This document shows positions 3,186 to 21,856 of a stretch of DNA of 64,000 nt, one piece after another. A program made the translations under genes and the position numbers. Below the pieces are notes generated by a model. The model had not been told where the DNA came from. It searched no databases and saw only the letters and a program-made list of their open reading frames with translations. The DNA lies in IMG/VR virus record IMGVR_UViG_3300043567_000723; one strand, written 5' to 3'. The stretch's first letter is position 1. Every line of letters starts with the position of its first letter. Origin of the DNA: a virus (lineage: Duplodnaviria > Caudoviricetes).

Positions 3186-5164
3186 TGCCCCGCCCGTCTG
3201 GTGGTTATGCTGCTGGGTACGTGACGCCCGTACTGAGTTCTAATGCGGCTGTGGGAGTGTGGACGCCGCGCGATGTATACGCCAATCGAGCCGCCGGTAC
3301 GTGGCCTGTTGAGGGCACGGCTACGCCAGCGTTCTCGACTGTTGGCTACACGCGACTGTGGGGTTTAACCACAAAATCTTCTGGGCTGGTCACGGGTACG
3401 GCCGCAACCGACACCGGTCGGTATAACGTGAAATGGTGGGACAACACTATTACAAACCATCTTTCCGGCGGCACATTTAGCAAAGCAGCCGCGGGTGGCT
3501 ATCGCGCGTTTGAGATTTATCCGGTGCGGCAAACACTCACTTCCGCGTCTAGCAATGCGGTTTTAGCCTACAAAAACGGCTATAACGTCACTATCGACAC
3601 CGGGCAGAGTAAGTTCGGCGGCGCAAGCGCTTCTTTTGGCGGCAACGGCGACTATCTCAGGACATCTGTTGCGTTTAACTACTCATCAAACTTCACGATA
3701 GAGTTTTGGTTTCGGCGATATGCCTCGGGCAGCGGTCAGGCCCCTACGTTTTACGAAGCCGGTGATATTCAAGGCGGTCAGGGCGGCTTGCATATTTATT
3801 ATTTAAACGGTCAGATGCAGGTTAGCGACGGAATCGCCCCGGGCATCTCTGGCGGGTCAATTCCGGCGTTAAACACGTGGGTACATATTGCCCTAGTGCG
3901 GAACAACGGCACAAATACGTTGTACGTTGACGGCACCAGTGTTGGAACGAGCACGCAAGATTACGCGGCGCAGATAACAAATAACATCATCTCAATCGGC
4001 GGCGCCCCAAACTACAGTTTTTATATCCACGGCTGGATCGACGATTTTCGGCAAACGCAAGCCGCTGTTTACACAGCCAATTTTACGCCGCCTACGGCAG
4101 CCCTCACCGCGATTACTAACACAGCGCTCCTGTACAACTTTAATACAGACTTTGACTCTATACCGTTCGGACAGTTTGACGGCTTTGACGTGTCGTCTAA
4201 CAACATCACCAAGTTGCGAGGAGAAAGCCTCATAATCGACCGCGGACCGGGCTTCAATCAGTCGGTATACATGTATATCGGGTATCCGCATTATGGTTAT
4301 GGGTATGTGCCACAGTGGGTTCCCGGTCCAGCAGAATTTGCAAGTTTGAAAAACAATGATCTTGCAGCCGCTGATTTGGACCAGTTCTACACAGACCTCG
4401 GCGCCAGCAACGCCGGTGTTTTGAGCGTGCAGGGCAACCCCGGCATATCAGCCGACACGCCATCTATAGCCACAGCGAAAGGCTATACGGTGTTTGGCAG
4501 CGTGCCTCCGGCTACGACATTGCTTTTAAATTGCGAGGGGGCAAATAACGGAACCACGATTACAGACTCTAGCGTAACAGCGCAGACTATTCGCCGCCTC
4601 CACACCGGCAGCACTGCTCCCGTTACCAGCACAACGCAGTTTAAGTATGGTTCGTCTTCGGTTCTTTTTAACGGCAACAACTGGCTGGACAACTTAAACG
4701 GCAATTCGGCTAATGTCTTGGGTACCGATAATTTTACTGTAGAAATGTGGGTGTACTTAGCGTCTCGGGGAACGGTGACGCCAATCTTTGAGTTAGACCA
4801 ATACACTGCTGGTATTTTGTGGCGCGTAGGCAGCAGCGTAGATAGTCTTTGGATCAAAAACAACCAATACAACTGGTCGCCGGCTACGCACGTTCCTTTA
4901 ACGACATGGACGCACGTGGCGCTTGTCAGAGAGAACGATAATGTGCGCGTATACGCAGGTGGGGTGCAGCGGCTGTCTGTCAACTTACCTGCAAACACGT
5001 TAGTTGGCACAGCGGGCAAAATAGTTATCGGCGCGTCTACGCATGATAATTACACTACCCGTATGACCGCCAACAGTTATCTTGACGACATCCGGCTGAC
5101 ACGCGGACTTGCTCTTTACACGGGCACCTTCACGCCGCCGACGGCGCAACTTACGGCACTATAA
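3185..5164 (+). CDS. Tail protein with two LamG/concanavalin A-like lectin domains
   Basis: Two copies of SKFG.SS..F.G...NFT(I/V)E.W...W.H(I/V)ALVR....YV.G...G..DD.R.T....YT..FTPPT, a LamG3-type signature. Confidence 0.8.
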   Translation: MPRPSGGYAAGYVTPVLSSNAAVGVWTPRDVYANRAAGTWPVEGTATPAFSTVGYTRLWGLTTKSSGLVTGTAATDTGRYNVKWWDNTITNHLSGGTFSKAAAGGYRAFEIYPVRQTLTSASSNAVLAYKNGYNVTIDTGQSKFGGASASFGGNGDYLRTSVAFNYSSNFTIEFWFRRYASGSGQAPTFYEAGDIQGGQGGLHIYYLNGQMQVSDGIAPGISGGSIPALNTWVHIALVRNNGTNTLYVDGTSVGTSTQDYAAQITNNIISIGGAPNYSFYIHGWIDDFRQTQAAVYTANFTPPTAALTAITNTALLYNFNTDFDSIPFGQFDGFDVSSNNITKLRGESLIIDRGPGFNQSVYMYIGYPHYGYGYVPQWVPGPAEFASLKNNDLAAADLDQFYTDLGASNAGVLSVQGNPGISADTPSIATAKGYTVFGSVPPATTLLLNCEGANNGTTITDSSVTAQTIRRLHTGSTAPVTSTTQFKYGSSSVLFNGNNWLDNLNGNSANVLGTDNFTVEMWVYLASRGTVTPIFELDQYTAGILWRVGSSVDSLWIKNNQYNWSPATHVPLTTWTHVALVRENDNVRVYAGGVQRLSVNLPANTLVGTAGKIVIGASTHDNYTTRMTANSYLDDIRLTRGLALYTGTFTPPTAQLTAL

Positions 5165-18308: not shown

Positions 18309-18382
18309 GACCCCTTAGCTCAGCTGGTTAGAGCATCGGACTTTTAATCCGTTGGTCCTCGGTTCGAATCCGAGAGGGGTCA
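18309..18382 (+). tRNA. tRNA-Lys(UUU)
   Basis: Cloverleaf: GACCCCT/AGGGGTC acceptor, anticodon loop CT-TTT-AA, GGTTCGAATCC T arm; CCA not encoded. Confidence 0.95.
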
Positions 18383-18422
18383 CTGTTTGGGGGTTCGATT
18401 GTTTCACACAAGGATGAGTGAA

Positions 18423-18623
18423 ATGAATTGGGTAGTTATGCTTCTTATGTCGATCTTAATGCCAGTTGTGCAGCCGACTCTGCAAAATGGAGTACAGAAA
18501 ATGTCGGCTAAGATTCAGCAGGTTTCCCAACCAAGCCCTTATATTACGTACCACGAAGGGCGCTGGTGGAAGTTAGAGAACGGTCAGTGGTACGTCTGGC
18601 AGGAGAACAAAAATGCCAATTAG
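18423..18623 (+). CDS. Small exported protein with Trp/Tyr-rich tail
   Basis: Hydrophobic N-terminus; YITYHEGRWWKLENGQWYVWQ. Confidence 0.55.
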   Translation: MNWVVMLLMSILMPVVQPTLQNGVQKMSAKIQQVSQPSPYITYHEGRWWKLENGQWYVWQENKNAN

Positions 18624-18894
18624 TGCGCCGCTGTTTAATCTATATTTCACAGGTGAGTACGACAAGATTCCGACTCGTATGCAGACGGCCCTTACGCGAT
18701 ACGTCACCGACCGCGTGGCTCCCGGTAACTTCCTGCAAGCGGTCATTAAGAACGACCTGCGCGACGCCTGTGGCCGCGCAGATAGTGAGAATCTGCCGCT
18801 GTTACCCCTGTACGTTAAATGGCTTTACAACGTCGCTCCGGGCGGCTGTTGGGGTAGCCTAGACAACTACAAGGCGTGGATGGCTGGTGAGTAA
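18613..18894 (+). CDS. Hypothetical phage protein
   Basis: 93-aa ORF with AGGAG RBS; PGNFLQAVIKNDL...WGS motif. Confidence 0.65.
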   Translation: MPISAPLFNLYFTGEYDKIPTRMQTALTRYVTDRVAPGNFLQAVIKNDLRDACGRADSENLPLLPLYVKWLYNVAPGGCWGSLDNYKAWMAGE

Positions 18895-18924
18895 TCTATA
18901 AGCCTTTTTGCGTAAAAAGTTGCC

Positions 18925-18997
18925 GGGATCGTAGCCCAATGGCAGAGGCAAAGGACTTAAAATCCTTCAAGTGTGGGTTCGAGTCCCACCGATCCTA
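18925..18997 (+). tRNA. tRNA-Leu(UAA) with short variable loop
   Basis: GGGATCG/CGATCCT acceptor, AAGGA-CT-TAA-AA-TCCTT, 5-nt variable region CAAGT, GTGGG-TTCGAGT-CCCAC. Confidence 0.9.
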
Positions 18998-19020
18998 ATG
19001 GTTGATCAAAAGGAGTTTTC

Positions 19021-19371
19021 ATGCCACAAGACACGGTTAAATACAAACCGGTTTGTTGCTACCAGTGCGGAGAAACGTTTCGGTCGTATACGTTCAAAGA
19101 CGTGTACGACATGCGCATTGACGGCGTGATTCACAAAGTGCCCGTATACGCTGTCCCGTGCCGGCGTTGCGACGCCTGCGACATCGCGATAACGGACGCT
19201 GGTTCCGATGAGGCCGTGCAGTGGTCGTACAAAAAGTACCTCAACGAGCACGGATTAAACACGCCATGGCTGCGTTTCCGCCGCTGGATTCGTCGCCGTT
19301 GCCGAATCGCGTGCGACCGGTATAACTGGTACCGGCTGCGATTCGATAAATGGCGTGGCAAATATTCGTAG
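19021..19371 (+). CDS. MqsA/YgiT-type zinc-finger protein without HTH
   Basis: CYQCGE...KDVYDMRIDGVIHKVPVYAVPCRRCD spacing matches the YgiT-type Zn finger; AAGGAG RBS. Confidence 0.55.
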   Translation: MPQDTVKYKPVCCYQCGETFRSYTFKDVYDMRIDGVIHKVPVYAVPCRRCDACDIAITDAGSDEAVQWSYKKYLNEHGLNTPWLRFRRWIRRRCRIACDRYNWYRLRFDKWRGKYS

Positions 19372-19377
19372 CAACGT

Positions 19378-19451
19378 AGGCGCATAGCTCAATTGGTCAG
19401 AGCACCTGCTTTACACGCAGGGGGTTAGGGGTTCGAGTCCCTTTGCGCCTA
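19378..19451 (+). tRNA. tRNA-Val(UAC)
   Basis: AGGCGCA/TGCGCCT acceptor, CCTGC-TT-TAC-AC-GCAGG, GGTTCGAGTCC. Confidence 0.95.
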
Positions 19452-19515
19452 TTGCCCGGTGTGGGGCGTATTCGACAACAGCCGCGCACACCCGCGGTGT
19501 ATTCACGGAGGATTT

Positions 19516-19884
19516 ATGATCCGCATTTTCATGTGCCTGTGTCTGGTTGCGTCTGCTCTCACGGTTGAGGCGGCTCCCCGACGACGATATACCTACAACA
19601 CGACACCGGCAGCCTCGCCAGCGCGTGTGTCTGGGTATACGTCCACCTCCTCTATGCCGACGGGTAATACCGGTTCGGCACAGGGTGTGGCTGAAATACA
19701 GGCTTCGCGCGGCTACGTGGGCCACTTCGGTGGCAACAGTGGTTACGAGGGTTGCGGCTCCGGTTCGACGCCAGAGCAAGCCCTAAACAACTGCTGCTAT
19801 TCCAATAGCGGCATGGCAGTTGTGGATCAGGGCGTAGCCTGTGGCCGTAATGGCCGTTGGTACGCTTGCAAGCGGTACCGGTAA
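19516..19884 (+). CDS. Secreted Cys-containing protein, possibly truncated CAP/SCP-like
   Basis: GGAGG RBS, signal peptide, GHFGGNSGYEGCGSG...NNCCYSNSG...GVACGRNGRWYACKRY. Confidence 0.55.
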   Translation: MIRIFMCLCLVASALTVEAAPRRRYTYNTTPAASPARVSGYTSTSSMPTGNTGSAQGVAEIQASRGYVGHFGGNSGYEGCGSGSTPEQALNNCCYSNSGMAVVDQGVACGRNGRWYACKRYR

Positions 19885-19939
19885 TACTGGCTAATCGGCG
19901 GGCGCTGGAGGAAGCTCAAGCCTCTGGCGCCCGCCCCGC

Positions 19940-20010
19940 GGCCCGCGGAAACCGGTTGGCAAGCGAGTCTTATTAACTCGAAACGCGGGGTTCGACTCCT
20001 CGGCGGGCTA
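19940..20010 (+). tRNA. Atypical tRNA-Ile(UAU)-like gene (weak D arm, U at position 37)
   Basis: GGCCCGC/GCGGGCT acceptor, CGAGT-CT-TAT-TA-ACTCG anticodon arm, CGGGG-TTCGACT-CCTCG T arm; D region short with no clear stem. Confidence 0.65.
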
Positions 20011-20050
20011 TTGTTTGTTCTGTTTGTTATCGACTTTTATAGGAGTTAAC

Positions 20051-20212
20051 ATGCGCTACAAGAACGTAACGGCTGATGGTTCTTTTTTCGCCATTGTCAA
20101 ATGGGCAGAAACCAACAACGCGCATTACGACACGCGCGTTATAAATGGTCGGATACAGATTGGCATGTCGCCATATCACTGGCGTCGTGCTGAATATCAA
20201 GGTGCAGCATGA
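20051..20212 (+). CDS. Small hypothetical protein
   Basis: AGGAG RBS before ATG 20051; coupled to the next ORF. Confidence 0.5.
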   Translation: MRYKNVTADGSFFAIVKWAETNNAHYDTRVINGRIQIGMSPYHWRRAEYQGAA

Positions 20213-20394
20213 CACTTGAACGTGCGGCCGAGCTAGTTTCAGCGCTCCGCGTAGCTGAACCAAACTCATTAGCTGCGCCTGATTTGTTCTCTCACTTTGT
20301 GGATTATTTCAATCTGCAGGGAGAAAAAAAACTAACGCAATTTGCAGAGCTGTGCGGTTTTCTTATCGCTTGCGATGTTAGTCGCGTTGGTTGA
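20209..20394 (+). CDS. Small hypothetical protein
   Basis: ATGA overlap with the previous stop. Confidence 0.45.
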   Translation: MTLERAAELVSALRVAEPNSLAAPDLFSHFVDYFNLQGEKKLTQFAELCGFLIACDVSRVG

Positions 20395-20397
20395 ACG

Positions 20398-20470
20398 GGC
20401 CCCATCGTCTAGAGGCCTAGGACACCACCCTTTCACGGTGGATACCGGGGTTCGAATCCCCGTGGGGTCA
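20398..20470 (+). tRNA. tRNA-Glu(UUC)
   Basis: GGCCCCA/TGGGGTC acceptor, CCACC-CT-TTC-AC-GGTGG, GGTTCGAATCC. Confidence 0.95.
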
Positions 20471-20607
20471 TTGATGAGTAAAACCATTGAACTGTTCCGG
20501 CTGATCCCCGGCAGGAGGTAGTGAGGTTTTAAGTTCGATTTCCCGGTATGCCTATCCACGTGGCTCGTATATCGGAAGCGACCCCTAATCGACACTCATC
20601 AATTTTT

Positions 20608-20681
20608 AACTCGGTAGCCCAATTGGCAGAGGCGGTAGACTTAGGATCTACTTGTTGTGGGTTCGACTCCCACCCGGGTTA
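20608..20681 (+). tRNA. tRNA-Leu(UAG) with short variable loop
   Basis: AACTCGG/CCGGGTT acceptor, GTAGA-CT-TAG-GA-TCTAC, 5-nt variable region TTGTT, GTGGG-TTCGACT-CCCAC. Confidence 0.9.
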
Positions 20682-20683
20682 TT

Positions 20684-20850
20684 GTCTCGGCAGCGTGTGT
20701 ACAGCGCTGCGAAATGCAGGGGGAAGTTAGTCCTCCTTAATTCGTTTGTGGGAGGGTAGCAAAGGTATTGATATCTATGGCCGGGCGCATCGGCCCGGCC
20801 GCCAAATAGATAACAATATGCCCGATAGGACCACGTCCCTGCGGCGAGAC
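20684..20850 (+). ncRNA. Unclassified structured RNA candidate (167 nt)
   Basis: Closing helix GTCTCG/CGAGAC followed by TTTTT; internal helices GCAGCG/CGCTGC, GCAGGG/CCCTGC, CCTCC/GGAGG and a compound stem GTATTG-ATCTAT-GGCCGGGC / GCCCGGCC-ATAGAT-CAATAT. Confidence 0.6.
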
Positions 20851-20871
20851 TTTTTCATCTAGGAGAGAATC

Positions 20872-21246
20872 ATGTGGGACGATGTCATAATTGGCAGCGG
20901 AAATAGTCTGAACGGCGCTTGCCTCGTGCGCAAGCTAGAGAATGCTGATATCTCTGCTAACGCCGCGTCATACTGGATCCACCAAGCCTATCTTGGCGGC
21001 AGCATGACTATTTTCAAGAACACGCTGGAAGGTGACAAGCTGAAAACCATGCTTACCGACGGCACAGCAGATGGCGACATTTCGGTTTGGCTGGAAAACG
21101 TGTTTATTGATAACGTAGAAAGCGGCCGGTTGAAAATGCTTGTGCGGTCGGCCATAATGCGGGCAGAGTCCAATGCCCGTAAAAAGAAGGCTAAGGACAT
21201 TCGCAAAGCTTTTAGCCGCGCATTCAGAAAGATTGATGAGTATTGA
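20872..21246 (+). CDS. Hypothetical protein
   Basis: AGGAG RBS; MWDDVIIGSG start; 124 aa. Confidence 0.65.
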   Translation: MWDDVIIGSGNSLNGACLVRKLENADISANAASYWIHQAYLGGSMTIFKNTLEGDKLKTMLTDGTADGDISVWLENVFIDNVESGRLKMLVRSAIMRAESNARKKKAKDIRKAFSRAFRKIDEY

Positions 21247-21254
21247 TTGATACA

Positions 21255-21596
21255 GGGGGCGTACTGGTATCGACGTATAGACGGAAACACACATTGCATT
21301 CCGTGGTTGATCGAGAGGCCACGTTAATACTCGATTAAATGTTAATTGGCACTTTCAACAGTGTCCCCGCTCTCGCTGCCTGAGCAGTGATCGGGTGAGG
21401 CGCGTGACCTCATCGCCCATCACGCTGGCCGACTGGAAGAAGTCTGACAGGCTGGACAGACAGCCAAAGATGGTGGTAGCCCACCTGACGCCGATAATCG
21501 GCTGGCTTTGTTCATTGTGTAAGCAACAATGAGACATGAATGTAGACGTGTGTGTGGAAACTATTACGGACGCGGGTTCGACTCCCGCCGCCTCCA
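21255..21596 (+). ncRNA. ssrA: tmRNA; tag reading frame 21348-21383 encodes (A)GTFNSVPALAA*
   Basis: 5-prime GGGGGCG...GGTATCGAC and 3-prime GGACGCGGGTTCGACTCCCGCCGCCTCCA tRNA-like domain; pk1-like CCGTGG/CCACG element; tag ends in the LAA degron. Confidence 0.95.
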
Positions 21597-21600
21597 TATA

Positions 21601-21719
21601 ACAACGTTCGTGGGTGAAGGCGCCTCAAAAAGGTTAGCCGTGGAAACTAGGGCAAATATTCACGCATGAGCCCGAAGACCTATACCCCGTGATGGCCTGC
21701 GTGTCCGTCACAACGTTGT
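21601..21719 (+). ncRNA. Possible structured RNA directly after tmRNA
   Basis: Closing ACAACGTT/AACGTTGT (extendable by GTG/CAC), internal GTGAA/TTCAC; no ORF. Confidence 0.35.
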
Positions 21720-21722
21720 TTT

Positions 21723-21856
21723 AACCGGGCGCTCCTTGCCTTCGGATACCACTGCGGGGAATCTCGTAGTGAGCTGCCGACGTGGGGGAGCACTAAGAAC
21801 AGCTGCAGCTGGGCTTAGATAAGGGCTGGGGCGTAAATGGCCCACCCGGTTTTTTT
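21723..21856 (+). ncRNA. Unclassified multi-branch structured RNA candidate ending in a U-tract
   Basis: AACCGGG/CCCGGTT closing helix followed by a T-run; internal GCTCC/GGAGC, CACTGCGG/TCGTAGTG, CTAAG/CTTAG, GGGCT/GGCCC. Confidence 0.5.

Follow-up and report, generated by a model that had tools for sequence, protein, structure and literature searches.

An array of tRNA genes in a phage recorded in IMG/VR carries an element whose family, judged by comparative sequence analysis, is a conserved pseudoknotted RNA with a core of ~108 nt that is absent from Rfam 15. Although not a tRNA, the element is an RNA gene of a phage tRNA cluster, sharing the strand of the tRNAs and lying close to them. 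The copy described here spans positions 20684-20850 (+ strand, 167 nt) of a 64,000-nt stretch of DNA (the window) belonging to a 157.5-kb virus record. A first-pass annotation had proposed a new phage ncRNA at this site, a proposal supported by a family that is conserved, covaries and has no match in Rfam 15.

Fold and covariation of the element

A single base (U20683) intervenes between the discriminator of the upstream tRNA-Leu(UAG) and G20684, the first base of the element, placing its start 2 nt past the discriminator as annotated. The 5' GUCUCG (20684-20689) is complementary to the 3' CGAGAC (20845-20850), and TTTTT follows at 20851-20855; these paired ends and the U-tract had been read directly from the sequence, and the terminal helix (P1) is now supported by covariation. 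The 167-nt element has an MFE of -74.5 kcal/mol compared with -55.5 +/- 4.5 for dinucleotide shuffles (z = -4.21), an energy that none of 200 shuffles reached. Scanning the window and relatives with Rfam 15 covariance models (tRNA, tmRNA, hammerhead, HDV-like, hatchet, pistol, twister, SRP, 5S, riboswitches and others) at gathering score returned no family matching the element. Relaxing the threshold to E<=10 on the window and on loci L029 and L034 again gave no element match except a YrlA tail spilling over from the tRNA; this was the cmscan check suggested with the annotation.

Coding capacity was also considered. Overlapping ORFs are short only (35-60 aa); the annotation had noted no ORF. 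Copies measure 107, 108, 109, 113, 167 and 188 nt, and reading frames are not conserved between sub-lineages (sequences read by eye). Because these length steps are not multiples of three and no frame is common to the sub-lineages, we regard the element as an RNA and not a peptide gene; a tmRNA-like tag or small peptide was rejected on the same reading of the frames by eye.

Related contigs came from IMG/VR and JGI metagenomes, which were searched with DNA patterns (exact or degenerate), with the 5' end of the tmRNA and with the neighbouring helicase. Of the 20 matches that a covariance model confirmed, 18 are distinct. The fold common to the 18 distinct copies consists of P1, P2, a GAAAU junction and a P3 arm holding a P4/P5 pseudoknot and a variable P6 (Table 1). 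It forms a three-way junction with a pseudoknot and no tRNA-like arm, in which P2 is stacked directly on P1 (J1/2 = 0 nt) and J3/1 is a 2-nt junction, GG. Over 31 pairs and 18 distinct rows, 99.1% of 555 cells are paired. Covariation, which the annotation had suggested testing in homologues, is present, with nine pairs changed on both sides. The covariation score reaches 0.250, compared with 0.101 +/- 0.010 in shuffles (0 of 500 reach 0.250), and sliding control structures by 1-3 columns lowers pairing to 32-56%.

Individual helices differ in how they vary. Two of the six P1 pairs show compensatory changes: the first pair is distributed across copies as GC:8, AU:4, CG:3 and GU:1, and the fifth changes from CG to AU in L036. 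P2 carries a single compensatory change, GC to AU, also in L036. Scanning for covarying columns uncovered P4, a helix of two pairs that joins the conserved strand to the bases immediately preceding the 3' strand of P5; P4 crosses P5 and the arrangement is therefore a pseudoknot. P5 is in turn supported because a paralogue of the P3 domain in genome G002 (locus L007) has GCGG/CCGC in place of the GUGG/CCAC found elsewhere. The conserved strand at 20722-20747 may also contain a small hairpin. G.U pairs on the + strand comprise an invariant U.G in P2, GU:8 in P6 and GU:15 in the small hairpin, and all of these would become A.C mismatches on the opposite strand. All copies share a strand with the neighbouring tRNA or tmRNA, and we assign the RNA to the + strand because of these conserved G.U pairs and this constant orientation.

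Comparison with the 17 other copies revised part of the annotated structure. The internal helices described from the window are present in its MFE fold, but not all belong to the family; the MFE pairing UCCUCC/GGGAGG, for example, is not kept in other copies. A 20-bp compound stem does exist in the window but is an insertion in the P6 loop of one sub-lineage and not a family feature, and the 167-nt size likewise holds for the window copy but not for the shorter family core. The long form, with an expanded P6 apical loop, comprises the window copy and those at L057, L048, L042 and L053. The other 13 of 18 distinct copies are short (103-113 nt) and lack the long arm, counting L050, whose 5' end is cut by the contig end. 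We rejected the idea that the long arm is a mobile hairpin (it occurs once in the genome) and that the P2 loop forms a kissing dimer: its UGUACA is palindromic, but an extra A breaks the palindrome in L042 and L053.

The G002 paralogue, at L034:1500-1596(-) (equivalent to L007 about 4040-4140), contains only the P3 pseudoknot domain, P1 and P2 being absent. Flanked by tRNA-Leu on one side and the complete element on the other, it has its own longer closing stem, a larger P6 insert and a U-tract after it.

Table 1 Features of the element and its neighbours in the window, placement of the element across loci, and a further candidate RNA in relatives.
Feature	Position or loci	Strand	Basis or remark
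tRNA-Leu(UAG), no encoded CCA	20607..20682	+	ARAGORN; Rfam RF00005 57.4 bits
P1 5' strand GUCUCG, partner 20845-20850	20684..20689	+	MFE fold, alignment
P2 hairpin, 7 bp including invariant U.G, 7-nt loop GUGUACA, nearly invariant	20690..20710	+	alignment
J2/3, invariant GAAAU	20711..20715	+	alignments
P3 5' strand, 6 bp with 20837-20842	20716..20721	+	three of six pairs compensatory: GC/UA, AU/GC, GC/AU
P3-domain conserved 5' strand GGAAGUUA..CCUUAAU.. running from P3 to P5	20722..20747	+	alignment, covariation
P4 pseudoknot 5' strand	20732-20733	+	pairs GC:11/CG:7 and AU:10/CG:6/GC:1
P5 5' strand GUGG, partner CCAC 20831-20834	20748..20751	+	invariant in full copies
P6 base 5' strand, partner 20821-20823	20754..20756	+	middle pair CG:11, AU:3, GC:3, GU:1
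Lineage-specific long arm in P6 loop	20765..20819	+	missing from 13/18 distinct copies; unique in genome
P4 pseudoknot 3' strand GG, crossing P5	20828..20829	+	covariation
P5 3' strand CCAC	20831..20834	+	alignment
P3 3' strand	20837..20842	+	alignment
P1 3' strand CGAGAC	20845..20850	+	MFE fold, alignment
U-tract	20851..20855	+	sequence; loci comparison
Phage tmRNA, other usual neighbour in relatives	21255..21599	+	Rfam RF00023 118.8 bits; ARAGORN
Element 1-2 nt after tRNA-Leu(UAG)	window, L004, L005, L010, L035, L037, L038, L045		8 loci
Element 2 nt after tRNA-Glu	L051, L054
Element 2-3 nt after tmRNA	L052, L057, L048
Element 3-5 nt before tmRNA	L016, L045, L038, L004
Element 3 nt before tRNA-Leu	L050
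Element 8 nt after ORF stop codon	L053		near-identical L042 likewise free-standing
Element 147 nt or 287 nt from tRNA-Leu	L007, L016
Candidate structured RNA in element-tmRNA spacer	L005:4958-5070, L010:1384-1498, L035:9068-9179, L037:7683-7793	-	absent from window

Placement and distribution

The RNA array of the window (18309-21599, +) contains tRNA-Lys, tRNA-Leu(UAA), tRNA-Val, tRNA-Glu, tRNA-Leu(UAG) and a one-piece tmRNA. We tabulated the placement of the element over 19 loci (Table 1). The annotated attachment to tRNA-Leu(UAG) holds in the window and seven other loci, but elsewhere the element follows tRNA-Glu, tmRNA or an ORF, or sits upstream of tmRNA or tRNA-Leu. Loci L038 and L045 have the order tRNA-Leu, 2 nt, element, 3 nt, tmRNA. 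Because ordinary tRNA genes of the same phages are themselves spaced 2-5 nt apart, the element occupies the kind of position that any other gene of the array does. What comes after P1 depends on the neighbour: a U-tract is present where no RNA gene comes after the element and absent where a tmRNA or tRNA lies within 3-5 nt. In total, 11 of 19 loci have a U-tract and three more have U-rich flanks such as UUUC or CUUUG.

This placement raises the possibility of a cis-acting RNA-end module (a terminator-like stop, an exonuclease barrier or punctuation) with no function as a free RNA, which we consider unlikely though deserving of attention. In most cases the element comes immediately 3' of a tRNA, tmRNA or ORF, both of its ends are sequestered in P1, and downstream ORFs begin 20-30 nt later; the U-tract, found whenever no RNA gene comes next, and the position 8 nt past a stop codon in L053 suit a cis-acting 3'-end element as well as they suit a stable RNA. 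However, the near-invariant 21-nt P2, the GAAAU junction and the pseudoknot strands far exceed what a terminator or barrier needs, and five loci have a tmRNA or tRNA 3-5 nt downstream and no U-tract. A 6-bp P1 closing a branched, multi-branch-loop fold would also be an atypical intrinsic terminator, and a terminator scan made no call at the element. Finally, tRNA 3' ends need trimming, not protection.

Every confirmed copy comes from one small clade of uncultured ~200-kb phages, and the runs containing DNA of this clade are lake-water and freshwater metagenomes. SNF2 helicases within the clade are 72-81% identical to each other and gave no close cultured relative; when 50,697 phage records were searched by blastn with the region, its tRNA-Leu part alone found matches. 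In the phage's own record, a search for two terminase families found neither. One strong copy is present in each of six of the eight complete clade genomes. The other two, G019 and G020, have no copy, and we take the element to be dispensable because these complete relatives do without it. Weak model matches in G012, G018, G019 and G020 fall within ORFs or are missing the conserved motifs, and the model did not confirm the metagenome pattern matches at L039, L041, L044, L046 and L056. Scanning bacterial genome contigs with a degenerate pattern gave eight matches, which the model did not confirm and which we attribute to chance; pattern and model together thus found no host or prophage copy in these contigs.

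An uneven distribution could also be produced by a selfish or mobile RNA/DNA cassette that moves between array positions at no benefit to the phage. Position does vary among close relatives, two complete genomes lack a copy and one carries a partial paralogue. We nevertheless find this account very hard to credit: the element is single-copy per genome and always in the same array and orientation, its flanks revealed neither terminal repeats nor duplicated target sites, the long arm is not repeated in the genome, and the compensatory changes indicate that the RNA fold is under selection.

Across loci, the element has no protein gene as a constant neighbour. The 124-aa ORF P0001 (window 20872-21246), between the element and the tmRNA, was discarded as a partner, having no Pfam match and no link to the element in other loci. 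Relatives of P0001 that are 30-34% identical occur in the jumbo-phage contigs L002 and L003 (299 and 328 kb), which are without the element and have no tRNAs near the P0001 relative; a closer relative lies directly upstream of the tmRNA in L019.

Several further observations concern the arrays themselves. Four relatives have a ~112-nt spacer between element and tmRNA that is a further candidate structured RNA: its fold is branched, a 9-bp stem (GUUGUUGGU/GCCAACAAC) closes it, and four pairs show compensatory changes, as judged from four sequences only. The two window tRNA-Leu genes, UAG (20607-20682) and UAA (18925-18997), are 76 and 73 nt long with short variable loops and a class-I shape, and the discriminator of tRNA-Leu(UAG) is U. 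This combination of shape and discriminator is unusual for a bacterial-type tRNA-Leu, and charging identity is uncertain; tRNA-Leu(UAA) in L005 and L026 measures 85-87 nt. A sigma-70-like promoter match (21130-21158; TTGAAA, 17 nt, CATAAT; 10/12) lies inside P0001 ~100 nt before the tmRNA, which may therefore have its own promoter. The 320-nt gap after the tmRNA (window 21601-21856 region) has no Rfam match at E<=10. ARAGORN assigns the tmRNA of L005, L035 and L038 a 25-residue tag, ADYVSSWRFC...SEAT, and that of the window and other relatives an ...ALAA-type tag (GTFNSVPALAA, GAYAPALAA); the SEAT-type tags are either miscalled or divergent tag templates.

Comparison with known RNAs

A close parallel is found in phage T4, where transcription of the tRNA region also yields RNAC and RNAD (species 1 and species 2 RNAs, rnaC/rnaD), for which no role is known (PMC3014915; PMC9697503). 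These small RNAs, of 139 and 119 nt, resemble the element in being encoded among phage tRNA genes, on the same strand as these, without being tRNAs themselves; rnaD follows tRNA-Arg at a distance of 24 nt and is itself followed, 6 nt on, by rnaC. The element is not homologous to either. Run with filters off on the T4 tRNA region, model R2 found nothing on rnaC or rnaD (best score 6.9 bits). T4 RNAC ends in a tRNA-like T arm (GGUUCGAAUCC) of a kind that the element does not possess, the predicted folds of rnaC and rnaD differ from the three-way junction with pseudoknot, and the hosts and phage lineages are unrelated. The best reading is that the element represents a positional analogue of T4 RNAC/RNAD without homology.

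Theta ribozymes, which nest their 5' strand internally in a double pseudoknot and pair their 3' end with the strand after P1, were the second system compared. Described in gut Caudoviricetes, they are minimal HDV-like structured RNAs a few nucleotides from tRNA 3' ends, often those of tRNA-Leu, with a proposed role in tRNA 3'-trailer processing (Kienbeck et al. 2024; PMC10879173). The element resembles them in its position beside tRNAs. In contrast to theta ribozymes, its 5' and 3' ends pair together, the first six bases with the last six, and it also occurs upstream of tmRNA and away from tRNAs.

We asked on this basis how plausible a self-cleaving ribozyme of a new class would be, one cutting at or near its own 5' end and removing the 3' trailer of the upstream tRNA, tmRNA or mRNA. 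In 13 of 19 loci the element begins 1-3 nt past a tRNA or tmRNA, which resembles the spacing of theta ribozymes (within 5 nt of tRNAs; PMC10879173), the compact pseudoknotted fold has invariant junction nucleotides, and the base preceding P1 is not conserved, as in 5'-cleaving ribozymes. However, equally tight spacing is normal between the ordinary tRNA genes of these arrays, some copies adjoin no tRNA, and no ribozyme family in Rfam 15 is resembled even at E<=10. HDV-like and theta ribozymes are excluded by the covariation-supported end pairing, which is incompatible with HDV topology, and no HDV-type Rfam family matches. The hammerhead fares no better: J1/2 measures 0 nt, CUGANGA is missing, GAAAU alone is core-like and Rfam hammerhead models gave no match. 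We accordingly judge a cleaving ribozyme of this kind improbable. The annotation had set aside tRNA, hammerhead, HDV/theta and SRP, in agreement with the covariance-model scans and the paired ends.

YrlA (RF02553) is likewise a stem-closed small RNA linked to a tRNA-like sequence. Its cmscan match in the window is weak (21.5 bits, E 0.36), starts inside the tRNA and overlaps the first part of the element. Such matches score 20-28 bits against a gathering score of 69 and fall on tRNA-Leu; in L029, where tRNA and element are ~290 nt apart, the match stays on the tRNA, and YrlA was rejected. Ro/TROVE (PF05731) is absent from G000, G002 and G003, while control genomes gave matches.

A putative stable RNA and its significance

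With these comparisons in place, we put the chances at about even that the element is a small, stable, trans-acting RNA freed by the processing of its tRNA and tmRNA neighbours. We favour a stable RNA acting in trans over its rivals because the conserved P2, J2/3 and pseudoknot point to a recognition surface: these parts are strongly conserved where the flanks differ. Most likely, the P2 hairpin, the GAAAU junction and the pseudoknotted P3 domain would form a putative binding surface for a host or phage factor. Release by tRNA-processing enzymes, co-transcription, stability and action in trans are all steps that we infer.

RNase Z (RNase BN for phage T4 tRNAs in Escherichia coli) removes 3' trailers, and RNase P cuts the 5' end of every tRNA and tmRNA. 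In the window, no CCA is encoded after tRNA-Glu, tRNA-Leu(UAG) or the tmRNA, so their 3' trailers must be removed to the discriminator. Since the neighbours lack an encoded CCA and lie 1-5 nt away, the same cuts that mature them would free the element. The element is probably co-transcribed with the tRNA/tmRNA array. Maturation of the 3' end of the upstream tRNA or tmRNA, by RNase Z or by trimming, would then free its 5' end, and an RNase P cut at the 5' end of a downstream tmRNA or tRNA would free its 3' end; if there is no RNA gene downstream, the U-tract may be where the transcript ends. With both ends locked in P1, the RNA should be stable. The element may not itself be an RNase P substrate because, unlike T4 RNAC, it has no T-arm-like motif.

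A 41-Mbase freshwater metatranscriptome contains a 588-nt contig that runs from inside tRNA-Leu through the element and into the tmRNA of a relative. This is one assembled contig of a relative, and contigs cannot show ends, strand or level; its word depth of 32.7 would be hard to reach by DNA carry-over, which is formally possible.

The element thus adds a new RNA family, of narrow distribution, to a kind known since T4. That phage tRNA clusters carry additional small RNAs has been clear since T4, and to our knowledge these still lack an assigned role after 50 years. What the family would mean depends on its mode of action. If the element merely stabilises or terminates transcripts, it would be of local interest. 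If it were a new small self-cleaving ribozyme or otherwise actively set the ends of neighbouring RNAs, to which we give little credence, these phages would trim the 3' ends of CCA-less tRNA, tmRNA and mRNA independently of host nucleases, and the element would match theta ribozymes in function while being unrelated to them in structure. Should it prove to be a ribozyme, or to act as a decoy for a host factor of RNA processing or defence, phage RNA biology would gain a new mechanism. The invariant P2 hairpin looks like a specific, if putative, recognition site. The family also offers natural variants (long and short forms, a paralogue limited to one domain, and several placements), which make it a tractable object for uncovering function.
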